From a virus, in the UHGV virus genome UHGV-0126033: 14,369 bases of DNA; one strand, 5' to 3'. The position numbers and the translations under genes were made by a program. Under the pieces are notes generated by a model. The model made no database searches and was not told where the DNA came from. It worked only from the letters and a program-made list of their open reading frames with translations. This document shows, in pieces, positions 1,667 to 14,358 of this stretch (positions are counted from its first letter, which is position 1; every line of letters starts with the position of its first letter).

Positions 1667-2686
1667 TTAGGGCTTGGTGGTGAAGGTGAACTTGGTCACT
1701 GCAGCGGTGTCCGGACGGCGCAGGCCGATGTTGTACATCGCGTAGCAGTCCAGCACGTTGCTGAACTCGCGCTCATCATCCCAGATACGGGAGGTGAACG
1801 GCTTAGCTTCAACAGTCACCAGGGTCTTGGACTTGCTGAAAGTCACCATACGGCACAGCGCGTCGTCAGAGGTGACGGTGTAAGCAGAGCCCAACGGGTG
1901 CGTACCGGCAGCGGTCGGGAACTCGGTGCACTCTACCACAGGCACGCCGTTCATCTTCACTACACGGCGGTCTTTGTAACCGTCGTTGTTGGATGCACCG
2001 AAGTCCAGGTTCAGGAGCTTCGGATGCTCCAGCAGACGCGAATAGGTATCGACATCCACCAGGGTAATCATGTCCGCCAGCGGGGTCTTGCGCTTGATGA
2101 GTTCATCGATACCAGCCTTGTGGGCCAGGTTGATGTTCATAGCGTTCGCCTCCATCTCAGCCTGGGTCAGCTGCGTGGCGGTGGTGGTACCCGGAACCAG
2201 GACGGCTGCGCCCACCTCGATACCGTCATTGAATGCTGGTTTCAGGTGCGCCGGAGCAACCCAGGAGCGGCCCTTGATGAGCTGAATCAGGTGCGCCTGG
2301 TCGAAGGTCTCCGCGAACTCAGAGCCGTTGTTCTGACCCATCTCGGTCAGGAAGTCCGGACCGGTCCAGTCATCCTGGTAGTCAATCGGGTTACGGATAT
2401 ACAGCACCGTATCCACCACGATAATCATCTTATCGTTACGGACCGGGGTGCTATCCAGCGCCTCACCGGAGCGACGACCTTTCACCGAGGAGGTGTTCAG
2501 GCGGTCAATACGGTAGGTGTTGGAACCACTGATAGAGCGCTGGCTGGAGAGGCCCAGGAACAGAGCCTGGTACTGGAAGCGGGTGTCGACTTCATTCTGG
2601 TACACTTCCAGGTGAATATCGACGTCAGACGCCGCGCCTGCCCAGTGGGCTCTTGTCAAGTTAGCTTTATAGATGGTATCGGCCAT
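1667..2686 (-). CDS. Major capsid protein (T7 gp10A-like)
   Basis: 339 aa, ATG at 2684-2686 with AAGGAAAG upstream. C-terminal YAMYNIGLRRPDTAAV resembles the T7 gp10A C-terminus (AKYAMGHGGLRPEAAGAV) as I recall it. Position after the scaffold gene and similar length to T7 10A (345 aa). Confidence 0.88.
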   Translation of the reverse strand: MADTIYKANLTRAHWAGAASDVDIHLEVYQNEVDTRFQYQALFLGLSSQRSISGSNTYRIDRLNTSSVKGRRSGEALDSTPVRNDKMIIVVDTVLYIRNPIDYQDDWTGPDFLTEMGQNNGSEFAETFDQAHLIQLIKGRSWVAPAHLKPAFNDGIEVGAAVLVPGTTTATQLTQAEMEANAMNINLAHKAGIDELIKRKTPLADMITLVDVDTYSRLLEHPKLLNLDFGASNNDGYKDRRVVKMNGVPVVECTEFPTAAGTHPLGSAYTVTSDDALCRMVTFSKSKTLVTVEAKPFTSRIWDDEREFSNVLDCYAMYNIGLRRPDTAAVTKFTFTTKP

Positions 2687-2698
2687 ATTCTACTTTCC

Positions 2699-3175
2699 TT
2701 ATTTAAGTACATTAACAGATGCATAAGCATGCATCTTTGCTTTAGCTTTCAGGTAGGCATCTCGCGCTGCGTGTTCGCAGTCAAAGTGCCCGAGGTGTGT
2801 TGTCTTACCATTTAGCTGTATGTAGGCCCGCCACTTGTTAGCTCGGGAATCCCAACAATAGCCTTTCCACACAGAGTTCTGAGCGTTACCTGATTTGTCA
2901 ACTAGGCGCAGGTTCTCAATTCTATTGTCTGCTTTATCCAGATTAATGTGGTCCACCATCAACCCTTGGGGTATATCCCCGTGATGCATGAACCAAACAA
3001 GCCGGTGTGCATACTCTCTCACCCGTCCCGCTGCCCCGCGGTCCCAGGTCACGCGGCGGTATCCCCAGTTATTCTGGTAGGTATCACCGAAACGACCTGT
3101 GGCCTTGTTAATCAAGCGCCCGTCTTCTGTGTAGGTGTAGCGATTAGCTAGTTCTTGCAAGAGATTAATCTCCAT
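2699..3175 (-). CDS. Free-standing HNH homing endonuclease with AP2-like DNA-binding domain
   Basis: 158 aa. HNH region YAHRLVWFMHHGDIPQGLMVDHINLDKADNRIENLRLV and AP2-like region WDSRANKWRAYIQLNGKTTHLGHFDCEHAARDAY. No clear Shine-Dalgarno; starts 12 nt after the scaffold stop. Confidence 0.85.
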   Translation of the reverse strand: MEINLLQELANRYTYTEDGRLINKATGRFGDTYQNNWGYRRVTWDRGAAGRVREYAHRLVWFMHHGDIPQGLMVDHINLDKADNRIENLRLVDKSGNAQNSVWKGYCWDSRANKWRAYIQLNGKTTHLGHFDCEHAARDAYLKAKAKMHAYASVNVLK

Positions 3176-3187
3176 GATTGGTAAGTA

Positions 3188-4030
3188 TTAGAGACCTACG
3201 CGCTTACCGGCTTCACGGCGTGCGAGCAAATCGTTATAACGTTGACTGAACTGTGGGGATGCCAAGCTACGGTTGCCCGCTTCCTGACGGAGTTTGGTAT
3301 ACTCTGCACGGAAGTCCGCAGCAGATAGTGCATTGTTGCTAGCTACGCCTCGTACCATTGGGTTCTGTGTCTTGATAAGACCCATATCCCGGCAGAAGCC
3401 CGCCACCAACTCGGCGGCCTGCTTAAGCTCGCCTGCGTTAGCGAGTACACGAGCTGCGTTACGCAGAGGTTCCGGAGCCTTGGAATTAAACAGCTGCGCT
3501 GCTACCTCCCAGTTCTCCTTCCCGCCTACAATATCGTAAGCTTCCTGTACTGCTTTGGTGGCTTGGCCAACCTGGTCTTCCAGGTACGCCTTGGCCAGCA
3601 GCTCTGCATAAGCAGCGTGCTCGCCGAAACGTTCCTTAATGAAGGCCGTATCGATTAGGTTAGGGTCCTGGTACTCCAGGGCCTTACCAAGTGCCCGCAC
3701 CATATCAGAGTCAGTTAACCCAGAGACTTTCTGCAACATAGCTACACCGGCGTCAATCGTCGGGTTGCCAGTCTTAGCCAGCTCCTGGGGCTGCTCTTTA
3801 GCGCTATCGCCACCCTTATCCAGGGCCGCTTTTAGGGCTTCGATATCCAGAGGAATCTTAGCAGGGTCAGGGGAATCTTTGCCCTGTTGCTGCTGGGTAG
3901 GTGTCTGTGCATCCTGCACGCCTTGATTGTTCGGGGCGCTAAGGGGAGCACCTAGGCCCGGAATCTTAGGACCACCTTGGTTCTCTACCTGTGTAGTTTC
4001 TACGTTTTGACCGTTTTCTACGTTATCCAT
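3188..4030 (-). CDS. Capsid assembly (scaffolding) protein, T7 gp9-like
   Basis: 280 aa, acidic, Ala/Gln/Glu-rich and low in aromatics. ATG at 4028-4030 with AGAGG upstream. Called by position between portal and capsid and by composition; no specific motif. Confidence 0.65.
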   Translation of the reverse strand: MDNVENGQNVETTQVENQGGPKIPGLGAPLSAPNNQGVQDAQTPTQQQQGKDSPDPAKIPLDIEALKAALDKGGDSAKEQPQELAKTGNPTIDAGVAMLQKVSGLTDSDMVRALGKALEYQDPNLIDTAFIKERFGEHAAYAELLAKAYLEDQVGQATKAVQEAYDIVGGKENWEVAAQLFNSKAPEPLRNAARVLANAGELKQAAELVAGFCRDMGLIKTQNPMVRGVASNNALSAADFRAEYTKLRQEAGNRSLASPQFSQRYNDLLARREAGKRVGL

Positions 4031-4044
4031 CTATGCCTCTGTTG

Positions 4045-5640
4045 TTAACTTGGTAATAAGCCCAGCTGCTTACCTGCTACTGTCGGGTCCGCTGCTGTCA
4101 AGCCCTGGAGTTGGTCCTGTGCTGCACCTGCGGATACATCGGCAGACGCATCTTGAACCTGTTGCTTCTGCTGCAGCTGCTCTTCGGTGTACATGAACGG
4201 CTCGCTGACGATACCATAGGCGTCGAAGTACCAGTCTACACACGCATCCTTGTTGAAGCGCGGAGTAATCTGCTCAAGCACCGGGATAGCCAGCTGCATG
4301 GACTGTGCCGCCTCTAACAGCTTGTCCGCTGCCGCGGCTTTAGCCAGCGCAGAGGTACCTACTGTAACGTTGATGCTCACCACGCCTTCGCTGAGGTACA
4401 ACTTAAAGCGAGGGTACACCAGTGCAGTGTACAGGTACGCCAGCTTACGCAGCCAGGTGTCGCTCAGGATACTGAACCCACCACCCATAGCGGCTTCCGC
4501 CTCTTTGGCGTTCTGGCGAATCTCATAAGCCGTGACACGCTCACCCTGCCGGGAGTTGCCGGTGTACATAAACGCACGAGACAGTTTCTGTTCGAGCATC
4601 TGGATGTTGCTGGCAATCCACTGAATCTTCTGGGCAGAGCCGCCCTCGTAAGCAGTGACAGGAGACTTAGTGTTTCCGTTGGAACCACCGCCGCCCACCT
4701 GCACGGCCTCCCCGGTCTCCGCCGTAGAGAACTCGTCCACATCCAGGCCAGAACTAGAATCTACTAGTGGAATCAGCCGAGAGGCTTCGACCTCGTAGTT
4801 AGTCAGTGCTTCCGACAGTACCGATAATCGGGCAAAGTCCCCAGCGTAGTCCTCTACCAAGCCGCGCCCGTAGTGCTCGCCACTAACAAGGTTCCACACC
4901 AGCACGTTGTAGGGGAGCTCCAGCTCCGGATAGGTGCTGCTGTCCCCGATACGGTGTCCATCGGCTTCTTGATACACCTCGTAGCTTACTACCTCTACGC
5001 CTTCCTCTGTCAGCTTAACTTTGCGACAAGCGGCAGTGTAGATATCAACGTCGCCGTATGGGTCTTTGTCACGGTAGAAGGTGTTCTGGAAATCCTCTGG
5101 CAGGTCCTGGACGCTTGTGCGCTCTCTGATAATGAGTCGCAGGACGTTCCCGCTGCCATCCCTTCGAACGGTAAAGTTACGAACTGAGTAGACGATGGAT
5201 TTACCTGTCCGCTCATCAATATACTCCAACGCGTTACCTGTAACCAGCAGCAGCTTCACAGCTTGCAACTTCGCAGCATAACCGTCTTTCTCAAATACTT
5301 TCTGTGACGCTGTGTTCTCAACCTCAGCCAGCTTAGATTCTGCCGTAGCTGCACTGCCCAGCGAACTAATGAACTCGTCCAGGTCCGAACTCTTGGAGAA
5401 CCGGAAGAAGCTAGTGCCCTGAGGGAACAGTGCCCCTACAATCTTAGTGGCTGCAGTGTTGACCAGCTGCGCGCCGGTGCTCTGGTAGTCACGCTCTAGC
5501 GGTCTGCGTCTACCGTCCAGGGAATCGTCCCGGGTAAAGATAGTGCTGAGCGTCCACTGCGCGAACTTCTCGGAGGCATCCAATACACCTGCGTCCTGGT
5601 CCTTCTTAAAGAGTTCTGCTAATGTTGCTTTTTGTTCCAA
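4045..5640 (-). CDS. Portal (head-tail connector) protein, T7 gp8-like
   Basis: 531 aa (T7 gp8 is 536 aa). N-terminus MEQKATLAE resembles T7 gp8 MAEKRTGLAE as recalled. Apparent TTG start at 5638-5640 with AGGGGG four nt upstream; no in-frame ATG near the 5' end. Confidence 0.75.
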   Translation of the reverse strand: MEQKATLAELFKKDQDAGVLDASEKFAQWTLSTIFTRDDSLDGRRRPLERDYQSTGAQLVNTAATKIVGALFPQGTSFFRFSKSSDLDEFISSLGSAATAESKLAEVENTASQKVFEKDGYAAKLQAVKLLLVTGNALEYIDERTGKSIVYSVRNFTVRRDGSGNVLRLIIRERTSVQDLPEDFQNTFYRDKDPYGDVDIYTAACRKVKLTEEGVEVVSYEVYQEADGHRIGDSSTYPELELPYNVLVWNLVSGEHYGRGLVEDYAGDFARLSVLSEALTNYEVEASRLIPLVDSSSGLDVDEFSTAETGEAVQVGGGGSNGNTKSPVTAYEGGSAQKIQWIASNIQMLEQKLSRAFMYTGNSRQGERVTAYEIRQNAKEAEAAMGGGFSILSDTWLRKLAYLYTALVYPRFKLYLSEGVVSINVTVGTSALAKAAAADKLLEAAQSMQLAIPVLEQITPRFNKDACVDWYFDAYGIVSEPFMYTEEQLQQKQQVQDASADVSAGAAQDQLQGLTAADPTVAGKQLGLLPS

Positions 5641-5649
5641 GCTACCCCC

Positions 5650-5916
5650 TTACAGGCCCAGAGGATTGCTCTGCCCTGCTTGTCGCCGTTTCTTCTGCTC
5701 AGACGTAATTGCATCTGCAGATTCAGAGGCAGCCCCTGCGGGGTCAATCTCAGCAATGTTATCTGCGGCGCTATTAGCCTCTAAGGCAGCCTGTTGTTTA
5801 GCTGCGCTGGCCTGCTGCTCTGCCAAGCGCTGCTGCGCCTCTAATCCTGCGTTGTCAGTAAGGCCGAGCATGTCCGTGGCCTTACCTAACAGCTTACCTA
5901 AATTACCACCACTCAT
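5650..5916 (-). CDS. Hypothetical protein (88 aa, Ala/Gln-rich)
   Basis: ATG at 5914-5916 overlaps the upstream gene stop as ATGA; GAGGT upstream. Lies between RNAP and portal, where phiKMV-like phages carry small genes of unknown function. Confidence 0.5.
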   Translation of the reverse strand: MSGGNLGKLLGKATDMLGLTDNAGLEAQQRLAEQQASAAKQQAALEANSAADNIAEIDPAGAASESADAITSEQKKRRQAGQSNPLGL

Positions 5917-6353
5917 TCTGACCTCACTAAATGATAAGTTGTCTTGTACGTGTTATCCGATGTACTCCGGCTAATGGCTATACGCCCAGCGCGCATGCAT
6001 TTGGCTATTGCGCGCAGGCCTTGCATAATCACAGACACTGCCGCGCCGTTGTCCGGTTTCAATACGAAGAAGTCTGTATACAGCACAGGCTCTACGTAAT
6101 GACAGTCCTCTACAGCCTCTGGGTAGTAGCTGACAGCACCGACTAAGTCGCCTTGGGAGTCATAGACTCCTAGTATATACTGTTTACCCAGTATACTTCC
6201 CAGCACCCTCCAGTAGTGCTGCTCTGGAGCCAGGCCCCGACTAATGCCGTGGCCCAGTTCATGCAGTTGCTTCACTGCGTCCGTAATGTCGTCAGACTTA
6301 TACAGAACTCTGAGAGTGTAGTCGGAAGTTTTACTAGTGTGTTTTAACTTCAT
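5913..6353 (-). CDS. Hypothetical protein (146 aa)
   Basis: ATG at 6351-6353 with AGGAG five nt upstream, 25 nt after the RNAP stop. No confident motif; faint acetyltransferase-like feel is not supported well enough to call. Confidence 0.55.
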   Translation of the reverse strand: MKLKHTSKTSDYTLRVLYKSDDITDAVKQLHELGHGISRGLAPEQHYWRVLGSILGKQYILGVYDSQGDLVGAVSYYPEAVEDCHYVEPVLYTDFFVLKPDNGAAVSVIMQGLRAIAKCMRAGRIAISRSTSDNTYKTTYHLVRSE

Positions 6354-8847: not shown

Positions 8848-8988
8848 AGGCGCTTAGTCTCCTTGGTTATGTCCGGTACTTCTAACTACTGATTGCGACT
8901 TACCCAGAGATTGTACATCTCCAGGTAGTCTTTAGCGGCGCGTTCGTCTCCCCGCTCTACTGCTTTCTGCCACATCCCGTGGCACCAC

Positions 8989-9444
8989 TCACTTGGCGTC
9001 AATGCACTTACCTCTGTGTTGCTCGTATAGTTCTGAGTACTTGTCGGACTTGGCAATGTCTTGTTCCAGCTTATCCTTGTTCCCGGCGCGCAGTCTGTAC
9101 TTGAGCCGGTTCCCCAGGCAGTATCCGTAGAACTGCTCTTTCGTCATACTGCGTGCAATCACCTCAATTGCCTCCAGGTCCGGGAAGAACTGGTAGTGCT
9201 TGGGTGAGTTCACTGCGTCGGGCGCTTGTGTGCTGGTTATGGGGACTTCCCCCGCTACATGGAAGTAGTCCGCGCGCCAACCGCCAGCTAGGTCTCCGCT
9301 TAGTGTAATTGTGGTGCCACTAACCTCAAGCACCTCCCTGGAGGCGTATGGGGAGATATGAAGAGACTCGCAGATTCGAGACCAGTCACCCGACACGTGC
9401 GTAGCTTTACGAACTACCACATCACCAACTTTAATATTACTCAT
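8989..9444 (-). CDS. T7 gp1.7-like protein (DUF3310 C-terminal domain; putative nucleotide kinase) with a different N-terminal domain
   Basis: 151 aa. C-terminal HYQFFPDLEAIEVIARSMTKEQFYGYCLGNRLKYRLRAGNK resembles the T7 gp1.7 C-terminus (HYMLFDDIEAIEVIARSMTVEQFKGYCFGNILKYRLRAGKK) as recalled. N-terminal 70 aa (MSNIKVGDVVVRK...) lacks the T7 gp1.7 Cys-rich region. ATG at 9442-9444 overlaps the endonuclease VII stop as ATGA. Confidence 0.7.
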   Translation of the reverse strand: MSNIKVGDVVVRKATHVSGDWSRICESLHISPYASREVLEVSGTTITLSGDLAGGWRADYFHVAGEVPITSTQAPDAVNSPKHYQFFPDLEAIEVIARSMTKEQFYGYCLGNRLKYRLRAGNKDKLEQDIAKSDKYSELYEQHRGKCIDAK

Positions 9445-9884
9445 TTAATAGTCTCCCGTGCTTTACGTCGTGCCCGGGCCTTGCGGGCCTTGAGCTTCTG
9501 TGCCTGCGCCAATTCTTCCGGCGTCTTGTGCGTATAGTATAGCATATCCGTAGGTTCGCGGTCTAAGTAATCGGCGACCCTACGTAGAGATTCAGCAATA
9601 GCCCCAGAAGATTGCATGCTACCAACAATCCAGCGCCCAGCGGCAGATGCCACTTTGCCTTCCCCTCCATTGCACGAGCGATGAAGAGCACCCCGAATAC
9701 GCCCAGTAATATGATCGTGGTCAACGACAACAGAATCACCAGTTACCCCCTTGATTGTGAAGTCCAAAGGTTTGCCACAAAGGGGGCAGATACCTCCCTG
9801 GTCTTTGGCAAGCTTAATTGCCACGGAGCGAATCTGTGCCCGTGTAATCTTCCGCAGACTCATACGTATATGAACCCCCACCAT
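9441..9884 (-). CDS. Endonuclease VII-like Holliday-junction resolvase (T4 gp49 family)
   Basis: CPLCGKPL followed by VVVDHDHITGRIRGALHRSCNGGEG, the zinc-binding and DHDH pattern of endonuclease VII. Start uncertain: ATG at 9884 has no Shine-Dalgarno; ATG at 9863 (MSLRK...) has a G-rich stretch upstream. Confidence 0.8.
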   Translation of the reverse strand: MVGVHIRMSLRKITRAQIRSVAIKLAKDQGGICPLCGKPLDFTIKGVTGDSVVVDHDHITGRIRGALHRSCNGGEGKVASAAGRWIVGSMQSSGAIAESLRRVADYLDREPTDMLYYTHKTPEELAQAQKLKARKARARRKARETIK

Positions 9885-9983
9885 AAATGCGCGGAGCGTA
9901 TGTGAGCTACGGTCAGTGCCGGAGACATCACCTCTCCGGTGTTAGTGCACCTAACCTGAACCCCTTGCTGTGGGGCGGGTTCC

Positions 9984-10011
9984 AATATATACACGTCTTG
10001 TGTATCCTCAA
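9984..10011 (-). promoter_or_regulatory. Candidate sigma70-like promoter (TTGAGG, 16 nt, TATATT) in the intergenic region upstream of the endonuclease VII gene
   Basis: On the minus strand TTGAGG (plus 10006-10011) and TATATT (plus 9984-9989) with a 16-nt spacer. Match by eye only, in the most AT-rich part of an otherwise GC-richer window. Confidence 0.25.
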
Positions 10012-10032
10012 AAGTATATTCTCTACCCATTT

Positions 10033-10233
10033 CTAACATAGTTCAATCTCCCCCACTACATCCAGCATAGCATTGTCGTGAATGAGAGAATCCAAATGCT
10101 CAACCGTTCTTCGATGTGTTTTGGGTGCTCGTTCACGCAGCGCAACCAGAATAGTTTCAAGTTCATCATGTTTCCCCTCGTAGTATAACTCAATCGCCCG
10201 CAGGCTCATTTCCTTCGCAGACATCTTCGCCAT
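10033..10233 (-). CDS. Hypothetical small acidic protein (66 aa from the ATG at 10233)
   Basis: Track ORF 10033..10302. The ATG at 10231-10233 (MAKMSAKEM...) has AGGAG 12 nt upstream and overlaps the exonuclease 3' end by 44 nt. Glu/Asp-rich. No motif. Confidence 0.45.
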   Translation of the reverse strand: MAKMSAKEMSLRAIELYYEGKHDELETILVALRERAPKTHRRTVEHLDSLIHDNAMLDVVGEIELC

Positions 10234-11158
10234 TGTCTGGGTGCTCCTGTATCCACTGTATATGCTGTTTATGGTACTCGTGCAGCGAATGCACCCAGTC
10301 ACGCAGACTGGGAGTAGTCAACAGTGACATCAGATACAGGTACGCTGAATCTGACGGGGAGCGCCGCAGGAACAGGCATTCTGCCTCTGCGAGTACATCT
10401 TGGTTGTTTCGAGCGTAAGCCGCTACAACGAATTCTGCGGCGTCCTGCTCTGAGGTAATAGGGTAGATAGCATCAAAGGCCGTTCGCTTCCCACAGAGCT
10501 TCCCATCAAGCAATGTGATGCCTTTGACGTTATCTGCGTCATCTCCTGCTAGCATCTGCCACCAGAAGAACTTAGTGCCATGCGCTCGTACCGGCATAGC
10601 CTGGGTATCATCCCACTTAATCCATCCGAAGGGGTTATCCAAGGCAGGCCATACGGTTCCGGTTGGGATATCGAACCGGGCCATAGGGCTGAGCCAGGAG
10701 TCCTTGTCCTGAGACATCAGGATTCCACGGTCCCCGAAGCTGTACGAATCCATTATGAACAGGTCATCCGCCTCGAAGTAGTCACTGCTTACTACCTGAA
10801 TACCCTGCTCAGAATACTGGTCTGGATTTTCAATCAGGTGCCGCTTCAATGGCGCCTTGAGCGGTAGCTCCTGTCGATTAGCGCGCTGCCCCTGATAGGG
10901 CTTAGCCGTAGGCAGGTGCCAGCGCAAACACTTGGCGCATCCCGTAGGCGTCAGATACGCAACTGCTTCTGAGCAGCCGACCAGGAACATGTCCTCAAGC
11001 ACCAGCTGATAGAAGCGGCGTATTGCGGTGTCCAAACGTTTCACTGTAGCGGCAGATTTATAAACTGTGAAATCCGCATCGTACAGCAGAATCTTCCCAG
11101 AGTTCTGCGGAGCTAACTGCTCCCCGAGCTGGGACAAGTCAACCCCGTTGATAATCAT
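10190..11158 (-). CDS. 5'-3' exonuclease (FEN family, T7 gp6-like)
   Basis: 322 aa. Acidic active-site blocks in the expected order: ILLYDADFTVYKSA, FEADDLFIMD, MSQDKDSW, LAGDDADNVKGI. ATG at 11156-11158. Confidence 0.8.
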   Translation of the reverse strand: MIINGVDLSQLGEQLAPQNSGKILLYDADFTVYKSAATVKRLDTAIRRFYQLVLEDMFLVGCSEAVAYLTPTGCAKCLRWHLPTAKPYQGQRANRQELPLKAPLKRHLIENPDQYSEQGIQVVSSDYFEADDLFIMDSYSFGDRGILMSQDKDSWLSPMARFDIPTGTVWPALDNPFGWIKWDDTQAMPVRAHGTKFFWWQMLAGDDADNVKGITLLDGKLCGKRTAFDAIYPITSEQDAAEFVVAAYARNNQDVLAEAECLFLRRSPSDSAYLYLMSLLTTPSLRDWVHSLHEYHKQHIQWIQEHPDNGEDVCEGNEPAGD

Positions 11159-11319
11159 CAGACCCCCGTAACCTTCTTGGTCAACTTACGCGCCCAGGAT
11201 TCCCAGGCGGTCAGCGCCTTGCTGTTCTCTACCTTCTCAAACACCCAGCACAAGATGGCTACCGGTACTAGAGGGGCCACTAGCATAAAATAAAATACTC
11301 TGGCAAGGGTATTTCGCAT
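11158..11319 (-). CDS. Unlisted small ORF, 53 aa, predicted single-pass membrane protein
   Basis: Hand translation MRNTLARVFYFMLVAPLVPVAILCWVFEKVENSKALTAWESWARKLTKKVTGV. ATG at 11317-11319 with GGAGA seven nt upstream; TGA stop overlaps the exonuclease ATG as ATGA. Fills an otherwise 160-nt gap. Below the track length cut-off. Confidence 0.4.
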   Translation of the reverse strand: MRNTLARVFYFMLVAPLVPVAILCWVFEKVENSKALTAWESWARKLTKKVTGV

Positions 11320-11321
11320 TA

Positions 11322-11519
11322 TTAAATCTCCAGTCTAGCTACTGATTTAGTAGCTGATTTCACCTGCTTACGGGTAGGTTTAGCGGCCCAGCGCACCACG
11401 TACATGGTGCAAGGGTCGTCCTCCCGGATAAAGGTTACGTACCAGCGGTTGCAGGCATGCTCAGCATAAGGTGCCATAAAGCTGTGCCTAGGTGCGTGCA
11501 CCTCTACACGTACGCCCAT
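11322..11519 (-). CDS. Hypothetical protein (65 aa from the ATG at 11519)
   Basis: Track start 11525 is a TTG; the ATG at 11517-11519 has GGAGG seven nt upstream and lies 2 nt after the upstream gene stop. Protein MGVRVEVHAPRHSFMAPYAEHACNRWYVTFIRE...; no motif. Confidence 0.5.
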   Translation of the reverse strand: MGVRVEVHAPRHSFMAPYAEHACNRWYVTFIREDDPCTMYVVRWAAKPTRKQVKSATKSVARLEI

Positions 11520-11521
11520 GC

Positions 11522-11893
11522 TCAAGCCTCCAGCTCAGATAGCACCAGCACGGTGCCGAGCATGTCCCCGATTACTTCCGGAGTACGCAGGCTCTGGTCT
11601 ACGTCGTAGATGCAGGAACCAATCTCCGCCAGCCCGATGCTTAGCGTACCCACTACACGGATAAGCACGAGGTCGTCGCCACGTAGCTTATCGGCATGTG
11701 CCGCCAGGTCGTTGTGCTCTTTGAAGGCGGTAGCGGCCAACTCCAGGTCCATGCCGTACAGGGCCGCCAGCTTGTCCAGAGCATCGTACACAGCGCCGAG
11801 CTGGTCACCATTGTCGAAACCTTGAACGGCGCTACAGTTCACGTAACCTACAGCCAGAACCAGTTTCTTGTATGCGTCTAGTACTTTGTCCAT
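11522..11893 (-). CDS. Hypothetical acidic protein (123 aa); weak resemblance to all-alpha NTP pyrophosphohydrolase (MazG-like) helices
   Basis: ATG at 11891-11893 overlaps the upstream stop as TAATG. Segments LAEIGSCIYD and EVIGDMLGTVLVLSE loosely resemble MazG-type E-x-x-E and E-x-x-D helices, but the order is atypical, so the call is tentative. Confidence 0.5.
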   Translation of the reverse strand: MDKVLDAYKKLVLAVGYVNCSAVQGFDNGDQLGAVYDALDKLAALYGMDLELAATAFKEHNDLAAHADKLRGDDLVLIRVVGTLSIGLAEIGSCIYDVDQSLRTPEVIGDMLGTVLVLSELEA

Positions 11894-12171
11894 TAGTCAA
11901 ATCCTTTCAATTTGTGTTTTGAAATGAAATTGTGGGCTTTGGTCTCAGTGGCCGTAGCCTCTGCACCCAGGGCGTATGCACGGCGTCGGGACTTGGCGCA
12001 CTGGCGAGTCAAGTGATAGCGGTGTGCGCTAATCTCGGCACCCAGAAGGCTTGCCCTGTGTGCGTGAGAATTAGCTGCCCAGTGCCAGTCGTTTGCTCGC
12101 TTCTGCAAACGCTGTGCACGCAGAAGCAGAAACACAGCGTACTGTTCTTTGGCCCATGTGATTATGCGCAT
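11893..12171 (-). CDS. Hypothetical basic protein (92 aa, Arg/His-rich)
   Basis: ATG at 12169-12171 directly abuts the upstream TAA. Strongly basic, possibly nucleic-acid binding; no motif. Confidence 0.5.
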   Translation of the reverse strand: MRIITWAKEQYAVFLLLRAQRLQKRANDWHWAANSHAHRASLLGAEISAHRYHLTRQCAKSRRRAYALGAEATATETKAHNFISKHKLKGFD

Positions 12172-12426
12172 TTATACCCCCAGGAAGTTAGCTACTTCAT
12201 CACGCTTAGCGCGCAGGTTATCAGCAGGGCAAGCGCACGCCTCGGCTAACTCTTTGCTATGCTTGGATGCCTCTACGCGCGCCTCGGATTGAGCGGCCAG
12301 ACGCACTGCGTCGTCTGCGAATTTAACTGACAACTGCTCGTTAAACTGCGCTTTGGCATCGGCGCGTTTAGCTTCTGCTGTGTAGGCTGCGCTCAGGAGT
12401 TTGATGAGAATCTTGATGATGTTCAT
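12172..12426 (-). CDS. Hypothetical protein (84 aa) with hydrophobic N-terminus
   Basis: ATG at 12424-12426 with AGAGGAAG upstream. N-terminal MNIIKILIKLLSAAY followed by a charged, helix-like region. Confidence 0.5.
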   Translation of the reverse strand: MNIIKILIKLLSAAYTAEAKRADAKAQFNEQLSVKFADDAVRLAAQSEARVEASKHSKELAEACACPADNLRAKRDEVANFLGV

Positions 12427-12439
12427 AGGCTTCCTCTAA

Positions 12440-12456
12440 GGCCCCTAGGAGGGGCC
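12440..12456 (-). promoter_or_regulatory. Perfect 17-nt palindrome (stem-loop) in the 53-nt intergenic region upstream of the 84-aa gene
   Basis: Plus strand GGCCCCTAGGAGGGGCC. On the minus-strand RNA this is GGCCCCU-CCU-AGGGGCC followed by UUAGAGGAAGCCU-AUG. No U-tract, so not a classical terminator. Preceded by CTAATACGG. Confidence 0.3.
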
Positions 12457-12479
12457 GTATTAGTTTAGGTTAGGGTTGA

Positions 12480-13268
12480 TTAGGCTTGATGTGCGGCGGG
12501 TGCTGCTGGCGCCACAGGGGCTGCAGGGGCCACTGGTGCAGCCGGGGCTGCGGGTGCCTGCATAGCCGCCGGACTAGGAACCGAGCCAGCGTTCAGCAGA
12601 ATATCCAGAGCACTGCCAGGGAAGTCTACAGCCTTGTACATATCCTCCTGAATCCAGTTCTTGCTCTTACCATCGTCGAAGGTGCCTTCGATGTGCAGGC
12701 TATCCCAGGTCTCTTTGGTTGGGTTGTTCCACAGGAACAGCTTAATCTCAGAGGCATCCAGGGCAGGCATCTTGATAGGCTCGCCAGTGTTCGGGTCGAA
12801 TTTCGGAATCGGGCGGATACCGGACAGGTCCGCGATGTTGGACTTCTTGCCCGCGGCGCTGGTGTGCTCATCAATCGGGAAGGTGAAGGCCTGGCCCAGA
12901 CGCTGTGCTGCATGCTTAATGCTATTGTCGTAGTTGAGCTTGTCGAAGAACTTCTTGAAGCCTGCGCGCTCAAAGTTACTGATAGCCATCGGGAACGGGC
13001 GGATACGCTTCACTTCGCCGTTAGGACCGAACACTACAATGCCGATGCGTACGTTAGCTACTGCGGGCTTACCGGTCGGCTTGCCACCCTTAGTCGGCAG
13101 GCGCTTACCGATTTCTACGTACTCGGTGAAGTAGCCGTAGTATTCACCCTTCGGCAGCAGCACGTCCTCATACGCACCGCCCTGTGCGGTTTCAGTCATA
13201 TCAACATCCTGCGTTTCAATAGCAGCCGCTACCAGGGAGTTCAGGGTGTCCAGTGCATTCATCGTCAT
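12480..13268 (-). CDS. Hypothetical protein (262 aa) with C-terminal Pro/Ala-rich low-complexity tail
   Basis: ATG at 13266-13268 with GAGGAAG seven nt upstream. C-terminus SPAAMQAPAAPAAPVAPAAPVAPAAPAAHQA. No catalytic motif recognised. Confidence 0.6.
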   Translation of the reverse strand: MTMNALDTLNSLVAAAIETQDVDMTETAQGGAYEDVLLPKGEYYGYFTEYVEIGKRLPTKGGKPTGKPAVANVRIGIVVFGPNGEVKRIRPFPMAISNFERAGFKKFFDKLNYDNSIKHAAQRLGQAFTFPIDEHTSAAGKKSNIADLSGIRPIPKFDPNTGEPIKMPALDASEIKLFLWNNPTKETWDSLHIEGTFDDGKSKNWIQEDMYKAVDFPGSALDILLNAGSVPSPAAMQAPAAPAAPVAPAAPVAPAAPAAHQA

Positions 13269-13319: not shown

Positions 13320-13490
13320 TTAGCGGGAGGCAGCTTTGAGGGCCACCGCCAAGAACACTAGGATTACGCCGAGTGCCATAGGCCCCCAGAACGGGAGCAG
13401 CACCCACAACCAGGACCAGGCGATAACGCCAGTCAGTTTCAAGGTTACAAAGATAAGGCCCAGTACAGAACAGATTCCCATTTTCATCAT
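13320..13490 (-). CDS. Small membrane protein with two predicted transmembrane helices
   Basis: Track ORF 13320..13538 begins at a TTG inside the upstream gene. In-frame ATGs at 13490, 13487 and 13481 follow AGAGGTG just after the upstream TAA. Protein MMKMGICSVLGLIFVTLKLTGVIAWSWLWVLLPFWGPMALGVILVFLAVALKAASR. Confidence 0.55.
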   Translation of the reverse strand: MMKMGICSVLGLIFVTLKLTGVIAWSWLWVLLPFWGPMALGVILVFLAVALKAASR

Positions 13491-13500
13491 CACCTCTGTG

Positions 13501-14358
13501 TTATTTAGTACGACCAACCCAACGACCATCGTCGTCAAGCAGCATCGGAATTAACTGCGGGCAACCCTCGGTGATTACCATCACACCCAGGATTGGTTTC
13601 TTGCGGGTGAGTCTGCCGTAAGCAAAGGCCATGCTCTTACGGTCAATCAGACACCCAGCATACGCACCAAAGTACAAAGCTGTTGAGCTAGCTGCATATT
13701 GCACCTCAAAGCGACCATGTTCGTGACCAAGGACAAGGCTGGTTCTTTCGTGGCTAGCGTTGAGCATGAAGTCACCCGACACTTGATGCTGGAATCTAAC
13801 CGGGCCAAGTGGGGTATTGAGTACCCACGCGTCAGCCCAAGACCACGCCGGGGCACCATGTTCAGGGAAAAGTATATCTCGGTACTTCTTGATGAATTGC
13901 ACTGGTAGCCCGTGAGCTTTCGCCCTGCGGTAAACCAGACTGCCGTGATTGGAATCGCAAACCAATAGGTTCGGGAACAGTTCATGTAGCTCCTCCAGTA
14001 CGAGCTTAGCTTTCTCCAGCTCCACCCCGGCGCTATCCAGGTTCGGGTTACTTTCGTGGAATGATATAGCGTGGCCGTCCGTCTCGTCGCCTACCTGTAC
14101 AACCATGTCCGGACAGTAGGCGTCTCGCACAGATTCTAAGAAGGCCATAGCATCTACGTGCGTATAGGGGGCATGCAAATCCCCAACTACGAGAATACGG
14201 TGGCACACTTCCGGCACGAAGGTTTTGCCGATGTCATCAGTGGGACTGGGCTGTATGAGCTTTAGTGCCTCCTTCATGTGGGATATTGCCTTACCCTTGC
14301 TCCCAGCGTGGTCTAGGAATATGCTGCGCCAGTACTTCACCATCTGTCGATACACCAC
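13501..14358 (-). CDS. Calcineurin-like metallophosphoesterase (putative nuclease or phosphatase); 5' end uncertain, may extend past the window
   Basis: Metal-ligand motifs in canonical order: VVGDLHAPY, VQVGDETDGH, VCDSNHG, LVLGHEHG. Track start 14358 is a GTG and the frame is still open at the window edge; an ATG at 14341-14343 is an alternative start. Confidence 0.75.
   Translation of the reverse strand: MVYRQMVKYWRSIFLDHAGSKGKAISHMKEALKLIQPSPTDDIGKTFVPEVCHRILVVGDLHAPYTHVDAMAFLESVRDAYCPDMVVQVGDETDGHAISFHESNPNLDSAGVELEKAKLVLEELHELFPNLLVCDSNHGSLVYRRAKAHGLPVQFIKKYRDILFPEHGAPAWSWADAWVLNTPLGPVRFQHQVSGDFMLNASHERTSLVLGHEHGRFEVQYAASSTALYFGAYAGCLIDRKSMAFAYGRLTRKKPILGVMVITEGCPQLIPMLLDDDGRWVGRTK

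Follow-up and report, generated by a model that had tools for sequence, protein, structure and literature searches.

A mosaic run of small genes around the exonuclease gene of a KP34-like Klebsiella phage includes a candidate VP1-type inhibitor of the host RNA polymerase

The virus genome UHGV-0126033, a stretch of 14,369 nt (hereafter, the window), carries a run of small open reading frames (ORFs) around a 5'-3' exonuclease gene at positions 10,033–12,426. Judged by sequence matches, the window is a KP34-like Klebsiella podophage of the genus Drulisvirus (Autographiviridae, Slopekvirinae): megablast with positions 9800–12500 returned 259 phage records at 80–99% identity, 233 of which were Klebsiella phages of Drulisvirus. 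The original prediction had likened six ORFs of the run, designated here A84, B92, C123, D65, E53, and F66, to the small genes beside the T7 exonuclease, and had named them as candidates for host takeover or anti-defence. We found that the run is a mosaic, not one functional unit. We consider it probable that this mosaic lies in the middle (DNA-metabolism) block of the phage and that F66 is a host RNA polymerase inhibitor of the type of VP1, a Vibrio phage protein. The earlier interpretation is partly supported, in that one of the six genes is probably a host-takeover factor. F66 most likely belongs to the VP1 family of RNA polymerase inhibitors, a relationship reached not by the T7 argument but through a homology that the earlier reader could not have known.

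F66 (positions 10,033–10,233, minus strand) encodes a helical protein of 66 amino acids from its ATG. The longest ORF, which begins at a GTG, has 89 codons, yet the PHROG profile covers only its last 64–66 residues. As a single sequence, F66 had no match in Pfam or PDB searches. A family profile was then built from six divergent orthologues; among 177,635 PDB sequences, its top match was chain G of 9W3G, a 68-residue 'Phage protein' (E 0.041), in which ERALELWYKD...LEATMIELRD aligned with the F66 family consensus. A preprint of December 2025 reports an AlphaFold 3 screen of phage proteins against the RNA polymerase holoenzyme and the characterization of three inhibitors, EP1, PP1, and VP1, with the PDB codes 9W3D, 9W3E, and 9W3G listed without a mapping (bioRxiv 10.64898/2025.12.17.695035). 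From the order of this listing, and from residue numbers that fit the chain, we infer that 9W3G chain G is VP1 (UniProt A0A9X9HRU3). According to cryo-electron microscopy and in vitro transcription, VP1 is a three-helix bundle of 68 amino acids from a Vibrio phage that sits in the main channel of RNA polymerase, bridging the beta protrusion and sigma70 region 2 and locking the clamp closed; it lies in the way of the transcription bubble, keeps open complexes from forming or disrupts them, and is impaired by the mutations Y21A and D57A (bioRxiv 10.64898/2025.12.17.695035).

A tblastn search with the aligned segment placed VP1 in 43 podophages of Vibrio parahaemolyticus, whose genomes measure about 43 kb (VP93/OWB group, Maculvirus). 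In phage OWB (L078), the 68-codon VP1 gene (3462–3668) lies between the exonuclease gene (2525–3475) and the endonuclease VII gene (3655–4095) and overlaps each of them by 14 nt. F66 occupies the same slot, overlapping the 3' end of the exonuclease gene upstream of the endonuclease VII gene; a further small gene, G59, intervenes in the window only. The flanking proteins of OWB and the window are related as well, with identities of 43% for the exonuclease, 56% for endonuclease VII, and 54% for p262, the protein encoded upstream of the run.

Profile comparison with hhalign gave a probability of 68% for the F66 family against VP1 (P 5e-5, 37 columns) and of 65% for family against family (P 5.9e-5). 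For a non-circular test, we gathered 84 family members, set apart four VP1-clade sequences, and built a hidden Markov model (HMM) from 82 non-VP1 members. The sequences searched with it were the VP1 clade, VP1 itself shuffled 20,000 times, and about 8,000 fragments of ORFs drawn from all loci. Outside the family, the best matches were the VP1-clade proteins, at 22.3, 18.9, 16.7, and 16.2 bits. The highest-scoring of the 20,000 shuffles reached 15.4 bits, and the roughly 8,000 unrelated ORF fragments also scored below the VP1 clade.

F66 and VP1 are similar in size (66 and 68 amino acids) and isoelectric point (pI; 5.46 and 5.29). Orthologues of F66 were found in four other genera, and members of the family range from 49 to 72 amino acids with net charges of -2 to -13. 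Three of the eight VP1 residues that contact RNA polymerase, Y21, E33, and R40, align with identical residues of F66 (Y18, E26, and R33). At the column of VP1 E14, the MAFFT family alignment places L/M/V, V/I, or A in three non-VP1 clades; manual re-reading of the HMMER register places Glu there in the E. coli and Proteus clades. Gly20 of F66 and its Pro37, the latter invariant among non-VP1 members, fall at the loops expected for three helices. Modest sequence statistics are here combined with the independent fact that the sole PDB match is encoded at precisely the syntenic position in a related genome, and for this reason F66 is very likely homologous to VP1. That it is also functionally equivalent, and inhibits the host RNA polymerase, is a proposal for which we regard the case as evenly balanced.

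Several observations weigh against assigning the VP1 function to F66. The signal is modest, with a PDB-wide E value of 0.041, hhalign probabilities below 70%, and about 40 aligned columns. At five of the eight VP1 contacts (E14, R29, D57, M60, and E61), F66 lacks an identical residue. Replacement of D57 by Ala impaired VP1; this residue aligns with Leu of F66, within a C-terminal alignment that is uncertain, and the contacts of the third helix can be aligned only with gaps. Non-VP1 clades also vary at the position of VP1 Y21, where they have F, S, or T, and the three-helix fold of F66 is a prediction from its sequence. In phage fHe-Kpn01, the F66 orthologue gp32 was not toxic in E. coli, with relative transformants of 1.59 (PMC7291057). 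This protein is 95% identical to F66, and a normal number of transformants is unlike what would be expected of a potent RNA polymerase inhibitor; the screen relied on crude ligation mixtures and on uninduced expression (PMC7291057). Finally, the phage probably carries other candidates for shutoff of the host polymerase, including a GNAT-like protein of 146 amino acids encoded after the phage polymerase gene.

In the explanation that we favor, a backbone of p262, C123, the exonuclease, F66, and endonuclease VII would be interrupted by two variable slots, in which small lineage-specific genes (A84, B92, D65, E53, G59, and others) and HNH homing endonucleases would be gained and lost. F66 would bind the Klebsiella RNA polymerase and block the open promoter complex as VP1 does. 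Made from the middle block, it would shut off the host polymerase, and transcription would be handed over to the phage polymerase. Among phiKMV-type phages, early and middle genes depend on the host polymerase for their transcription, and the middle block closes with the gene for the phage polymerase; the Pseudomonas phages phiKMV and LUZ19 have the host RNA polymerase shutoff factors Gp25.1 and Rac (Gp28), the latter a GNAT-family protein that triggers cleavage of the alpha subunit of the host RNA polymerase (PMC7552054). Directly downstream of the phage RNA polymerase gene in the window, at the position of Rac in phiKMV-like phages, we noted a gene for a 146-amino acid protein (5913–6353, minus strand) that has no match in Pfam. 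By length and position alone it corresponds to fHe-Kpn01 Gp38, which is toxic in E. coli and resembles N-acetyltransferases according to HHpred (PMC7291057). The protein is a second candidate factor for the shutoff of host transcription.

All six ORFs of the original prediction (84, 92, 123, 65, 53, and 66 amino acids) were recovered on the minus strand with unchanged limits: besides F66, these are A84 (12,172–12,426), B92 (11,893–12,171), C123 (11,522–11,893), D65 (11,322–11,519; 65 amino acids from an ATG, or 67 from an alternative TTG), and E53 (11,158–11,319). A seventh small ORF had been overlooked. This is G59 (9860–10,039, minus strand), which encodes 59 amino acids in the interval from F66 to endonuclease VII and is part of the same run, sharing 7 nt with F66 and 4 nt with the endonuclease VII gene; phage P1010 has it annotated. 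The tight packing that had been described was also borne out: A84 and B92 abut with no gap, B92 and C123 overlap by 1 nt, gaps of 2 nt separate C123 from D65 and D65 from E53, E53 overlaps the exonuclease gene by 1 nt (ATGA), and the exonuclease gene overlaps F66 by 44 nt. Upstream of each small ORF there is a G-rich motif like a Shine-Dalgarno sequence. As for the strongly skewed charge claimed for the run, C123 is acidic (pI 4.27, net charge -11) and B92 is basic (pI 10.75, net +11), and F66 is only mildly acidic (net -4).

The six small ORFs are real genes, beyond chance. This follows from their being called in relatives, from their own PHROG families, from the selection acting on them, and from peptides. 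Three annotated relatives have the same small ORFs called, each labeled 'hypothetical protein', and each of the six matches a PHROG family of its own at E 1e-30 to 1e-65. Pairwise ratios of nonsynonymous to synonymous substitution rates (dN/dS) of 0.15–0.40 over 28–58 distinct alleles indicate purifying selection (A84, 0.16; B92, 0.15; D65, 0.20; E53, 0.40; F66, 0.29); G59 gave 0.23, from three sequences. Peptides of the A84 and B92 orthologues, gp27 and gp28, were detected by liquid chromatography-tandem mass spectrometry in phage fHe-Kpn01 (PMC7291057).

Across about 260 related genomes, the small genes are annotated as hypothetical proteins; F66 has this label in the related records that we inspected (about 260 exist), and some have spurious ones. 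F66 is a 'beta-galactosidase' in phage VLC5 (L003, 3932–4132), C123 is a 'ribose-phosphate pyrophosphokinase' in Proteus phage 309, and in the OWB RefSeq record VP1 (L078, 3462–3668) is an 'amino acid adenylation domain-containing protein' with neighbors named 'UgpC', 'HAMP domain-containing protein', and 'E3 ubiquitin-protein ligase MID2'.

To see how the run varies, we collected 69 viral loci with the exonuclease as anchor, made an inventory of ORFs for the slot from p262 to the exonuclease and for that from the exonuclease to endonuclease VII, and tabulated presence over 66 Drulisvirus loci. C123, E53, and F66 were present in essentially all 66. A84 was found in about 56 (206 phage records), B92 in 32 (130 of about 260 phage records), D65 in 28 (132 phage records; about 45% of Drulisvirus genomes, fHe-Kpn01 not being among them), and G59 in three. 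Besides HNH homing endonucleases, the two slots carry at least eight further families of small genes, which include a second membrane miniprotein, a protein with a SEC-C motif (recognized by eye), and a divergent paralogue of D65. Synonymous divergence (dS) was 0.4–0.8 in the genes from A84 to E53 versus 0.10 in F66, a difference that points to recombinational mosaicism. One more distant locus (L070), with an exonuclease of 46% identity, lacks small genes here altogether, and its genes for p262, the exonuclease, and endonuclease VII directly adjoin one another. Podophages of Proteus (Novosibovirus), Providencia, Cronobacter, and E. coli have a C123-like gene after p262 and an F66-like gene that overlaps the 3' end of the exonuclease gene. 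The positions of C123 and F66 are thus kept across podophage genera, Drulisvirus included; we therefore count these two genes as backbone together with p262, the exonuclease, and endonuclease VII, and not as variable accessory genes. A84, B92, D65, E53, and G59 are lineage-specific or exchangeable insertions.

The same variability is open to another explanation, the anti-defence reading of the original prediction. B92, D65, and G59, and possibly A84 and E53, might be counter-defence or superinfection-related accessory genes that are kept or lost with the local repertoire of Klebsiella defences. They are polymorphic in presence among genomes otherwise more than 90% identical, their slots exchange small families and HNH endonucleases, E53 alleles fall to 31% identity beside exonucleases that are 93–99% identical, and the elevated dS from A84 to E53 bespeaks recombination. 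Yet such variability is also expected of selfish or neutral cargo near homing endonucleases, windowed dN/dS showed no segment of the run clearly above 1, and the proteins of the run have no similarity to solved anti-defence proteins or to Pfam families of known function. We regard this explanation as possible but unlikely.

The members of the variable slots are otherwise described as follows. E53 (phrog_7652) is a basic, single-pass membrane miniprotein with one clear transmembrane helix (residues 8–26; Kyte-Doolittle 2.37). Its alleles fall into identity ranges of 31–38%, 62–70%, and 81–100%. In its last alignment window (columns 49–55), next to the exonuclease start, dN/dS is about 1.1, and a sharp boundary of divergence lies at the 1-nt overlap. 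A transmembrane protein is encoded directly upstream of the exonuclease also in Cronobacter phage Peggy and Vibrio phage OWB. The E53 orthologue of fHe-Kpn01, gp30, was not classed as toxic in E. coli (relative transformants 1.03; PMC7291057). D65 (phrog_7840) is basic, is restricted to Drulisvirus, and matches Pfam DUF7279 (PF23945) over 43 of its 65 residues with 33.9 bits (gathering threshold 24.5; E 3e-8); 35 of 36 D65 homologues carry PF23945 too. DUF7279 is a domain without known function, so this membership explains nothing about mechanism, and our literature search found no paper mentioning it. The divergent paralogue, a D65-like ORF of 67 amino acids, lies downstream of F66 in two loci (L037 and L054). 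G59 had no match in PHROG or Pfam.

A second alternative concerns F66 itself. Its likeness to VP1 could be due to chance or convergence, and F66, perhaps with C123, could serve the recombination module, for instance as a DNA mimic that inhibits RecBCD in the manner of gp5.9 and lambda Gam, or by partnering the exonuclease. Genes for RecBCD inhibitors typically lie beside those for phage exonucleases, as T7 5.9 does next to gene 6 and as in lambda gam-bet-exo, and F66 is translationally coupled to the exonuclease through its 44-nt overlap. The F66 family is acidic and so is that of C123 (net charge -8 to -14), the lack of toxicity of the orthologue in E. coli would fit a RecBCD inhibitor, and only three of eight VP1 contacts are identical. 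We compared T7 genes 5.3 to 7.3 with every protein of the module by BLASTP and phmmer --max and obtained nothing significant, the best E value being 0.02 in a 10-sequence database. The proteins of the window also lacked a match to the Pfam DUF2675 or gp5.9 families, and hhalign of the F66 family against gp5.9 gave a probability of 0.3%, a lack of profile similarity that counts against a gp5.9-like RecBCD inhibitor as the identity of F66. VP1, with its demonstrated RNA polymerase target, occupies the same exonuclease-coupled slot, and coupling to the exonuclease is accordingly no argument against polymerase inhibition; moreover, the VP1 signal stood above all 20,000 shuffles. Taken together, a role of F66 in recombination instead of polymerase inhibition appears improbable.

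These comparisons bear equally on the original prediction, in which the run was the equivalent of the T7 region with gp5.5, gp5.7, and gp5.9. The correspondence is one of position only, with no similarity to gp5.3–gp7.3, and it breaks down at its most specific point because the slot before the exonuclease holds the basic membrane protein E53, not an acidic DNA mimic. Remote-homology search, which had been suggested as a check, led from F66 to VP1; the other five proteins (A84, B92, C123, D65, and E53) have no detectable relative of known function, and for them our explanation is descriptive only, a further point that counts against it. In PDB sequence searches, neither single sequences of A84, B92, C123, D65, and F66 nor the family profiles for A84, B92, and C123 produced a credible match, and HHpred had likewise found nothing for A84, B92, C123, and F66 (PMC7291057). 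A literature search turned up no study of the transcriptome or of anti-defence for these genes of Drulisvirus.

The other conserved small gene, C123 (phrog_6607), belongs to a family with 15 representatives at 50% identity among 1.84e9 proteins, and its identified members all come from podophages of this group; orthologues occur in podophages of Proteus, Providencia, Cronobacter, E. coli, Shigella, Enterobacter, and Pantoea. AlphaFold 2 with 20 near-identical sequences gave an unusable model, with a mean predicted local distance difference test (pLDDT) score of 59. After 10 distant members had been added, the model was a confident six-helix bundle (pLDDT 91.3; predicted template modeling score 0.85). 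Structure prediction, also suggested earlier as a check, thus succeeded for C123 without a significant fold match: Foldseek against the PDB returned nothing at E 0.001 or better, just generic helical bundles, and against BFVD only uncharacterized orthologues from Shigella phage Buco, Pantoea phage LIMElight, and Proteus phage PM16. N61, D73, R79, G82, and Y96 are invariant. The C-terminal two-thirds of the protein are strongly constrained (dN/dS 0.02–0.08), and residues 13–36 form a hypervariable segment, a surface of helix 1, loop, and helix 2, that carries most of the amino acid change, with a dN/dS of 0.27–0.34 at saturated synonymous sites. The fHe-Kpn01 orthologue gp29 was not classed as toxic in E. 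coli (relative transformants 0.75; PMC7291057).

C123 most likely acts with the DNA-metabolism module. A bolder proposal has two parts, namely, that C123 is a new kind of host-factor binder working with the recombination module and that B92, D65, and G59 are in addition new counter-defence proteins; we consider it improbable that both hold. If C123 does bind a host factor, a new class of nuclease or defence inhibitor is one possibility of what it may be.

A84 (phrog_5965, E 1e-38) has an amphipathic or hydrophobic N-terminal helix followed by an Ala/Glu/Lys-rich part, and B92 (phrog_10635) is strongly basic and His-rich. Relatives of both are confined to Drulisvirus and close kin, and neither had a Pfam or PDB match, family profiles included. 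The two proteins could be structural or ejected internal proteins of the virion, as annotated in fHe-Kpn01: they were detected in purified particles with at least two unique peptides and more than 5% coverage, were called 'putative structural protein', and were for this reason left out of the toxicity screen (PMC7291057). The marked basicity of B92 also resembles that of some DNA-associated internal proteins. The same preparation, however, yielded the exonuclease, endonuclease VII, the phosphoesterase, p262, and the phage RNA polymerase. Abundant non-structural proteins are thus likely to have been carried over, and we read the mass spectrometry as showing that A84 and B92 are expressed, not that they are structural. 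Both genes also sit in the DNA-metabolism block, far from the structural module. B92 is missing at 34 of the 66 loci (about half) and A84 at about 10 (about 15%), so that neither is an essential virion component. A virion role of A84 and B92 is accordingly very doubtful.

It is just as doubtful that C123 is a degenerate, non-catalytic all-alpha nucleoside triphosphate (NTP) pyrophosphohydrolase (MazG, HisE, or dimeric dUTPase) descended from the MazG-like gene that Vibrio phages have in this slot. This lead was prompted by reading of the sequence and by P0168, a database protein of 144 amino acids that combines residues 1–44 of C123 with a canonical MazG domain (Pfam E 1e-11) and is probably an assembly chimera. 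Phage OWB has a MazG-like protein of 209 amino acids between p262 and the exonuclease, and hhalign of the C123 family against it gave P 0.006 over 86 columns, with IIGTLNAQASDIIGSLYN aligned with VVGTLSIGLAEIGSCIYD. A more diverse six-member profile reduced this to a probability of 0.7% (P 0.083), and the C123 family aligned with the MazG part of P0168 at a probability of 0.4%. The Pfam families MazG, MazG-like, PRA-PH, and dUTPase_2 matched neither C123 nor 19 relatives, even at E 1, and the Foldseek search of the PDB described above returned nothing at its cut-off of E 0.001. The metal-binding motif of all-alpha NTP pyrophosphohydrolases is EXXE(12-28)EXXD; in the C123 family it is not conserved, with just E/D90 and E106 commonly acidic and S93 and position 110 not. 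We dropped the MazG lead as unproven.

Every long ORF of the window lies on the minus strand. Along the direction of transcription, genes for a metallophosphoesterase, a small membrane protein, and p262 precede the small-ORF run around the exonuclease; after the run come genes for endonuclease VII, a DUF3310 protein, and a single-subunit RNA polymerase of T7 type, and then those for portal, scaffold, and capsid. The upstream anchor of the module, p262 (12,480–13,268, minus strand; 262 amino acids; phrog_862, E 6e-82), accompanies the exonuclease and endonuclease VII even where identity has dropped to 25%, and it terminates in a tail of Pro/Ala repeats, PAAPAAPVAPAAPVAPAAPAA. Its public labels clash: 'large tegument protein', 'ribonuclease H', 'Fe-S oxidoreductase', 'protein p21', 'single strand DNA binding protein', and, in Cronobacter phage Peggy, 'DNA-binding protein, HHpred 8S4T_B'. 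The exonuclease (10,190–11,158, minus strand; 322 amino acids; phrog_107, E 2e-69) is an anchor outside the six small genes. As a correction to the T7 comparison, it resembles T5 exonuclease (D15; HHpred 99.97%; PMC7291057) and has no significant pairwise similarity to T7 gp6. Endonuclease VII (9441–9863, minus strand; 140 amino acids from the ATG used in relatives; phrog_423), the downstream anchor, matches Pfam Endonuclease_7 at E 1e-11.

The 53-nt gap between p262 and A84 contains a perfect 7-bp GC hairpin in the minus-strand transcript (12,440–12,456), GGCCCCTCCTAGGGGCC, which ends 5 nt before the Shine-Dalgarno motif of A84 and is not followed by a T-run. The pattern GGCCCC-N5-GGGGCC was found once in each of 28 related loci, mostly at or near this position, and the fold is unexceptional against shuffles (z -1.47). 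The hairpin may be a site of RNA processing or stabilization, or a pause site for the phage polymerase. An Rfam search of the window had no match, and sigma70-like promoters and terminators in the window were as numerous as expected from shuffles.

Between the phosphoesterase gene and p262, positions 13,320–13,538 (minus strand) encode a small, strongly hydrophobic protein (Kyte-Doolittle 2.23; probably two transmembrane helices) that is variably present among relatives; with E53 and the 'tm54' family of relatives, it brings the membrane miniproteins in the DNA-metabolism block of this group to three. The 151-amino acid protein encoded at 8989–9444 is named 'nucleotide kinase (Gp1.7-like)' in some relatives, and here just its C-terminal DUF3310 domain was recognized (E 7.5e-21). 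Its identity to relatives is 35–99%, with some matches spanning 40–56% of the protein, or the gene is absent. A 56-codon ORF (8886–9056) overlaps the 3' end of this gene in another frame. An HNH endonuclease gene lies at 2699–3175 (minus strand) between the capsid and scaffold genes, and its relatives move in and out of both small-gene slots (L006, L042–L052, and others). At some loci (L046–L053), HNH genes appear to replace the last 13 or so codons of the exonuclease, 309 of whose 322 residues match.

KP34-like phages are among the most often isolated and therapeutically used Klebsiella phages. Within Drulisvirus, F66 is a directly testable candidate for the switch from middle to late transcription. 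If its link to VP1 is true, an inhibitor of Vibrio phages described in December 2025 extends to podophages of Klebsiella, E. coli, Shigella, Cronobacter, Proteus, and Providencia, and the conserved arrangement of exonuclease, inhibitor, and endonuclease VII can be used to find more members. The run divides into conserved genes (C123 and F66), which are worth biochemistry, and exchangeable ones (B92, D65, G59, and E53 alleles), which are sensible subjects for defence-related screens.

Among the small proteins of T7, gp5.5 binds H-NS and tRNA, gp5.7 inhibits sigmaS RNA polymerase, and gp5.9 inhibits RecBCD. T7 and the window share an Autographiviridae genome with small proteins packed beside a 5'-3' exonuclease gene; gp5.7 and, as proposed, F66 would both target the host RNA polymerase, and gp5.9 and the F66 family are both small, acidic, and helical. 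By contrast, the gene order differs, and the exonucleases have no significant pairwise similarity by BLASTP and phmmer. In phiKMV and LUZ19, small proteins encoded near the end of the middle block likewise inactivate the host polymerase once the phage polymerase is made. There, the polymerase gene is flanked by Gp25.1 directly upstream and by Rac directly downstream, whereas F66 lies about 1.2 kb further upstream, and the mechanisms, beta' binding and alpha-subunit cleavage, differ from that proposed for F66; the likeness of F66 to these factors is one of regulatory logic. The closest comparison is with VP1. Overall identity to F66 is about 20%, and VP1 has a four-residue insertion (SKPE) between helices 1 and 2, but the two share an N-terminal motif, RA(I/L)EL(Y/W)Y, and a central LE...L(R/K) block, and both genomes follow one plan, with a length of about 43 kb and a phage RNA polymerase gene that closes the middle block.

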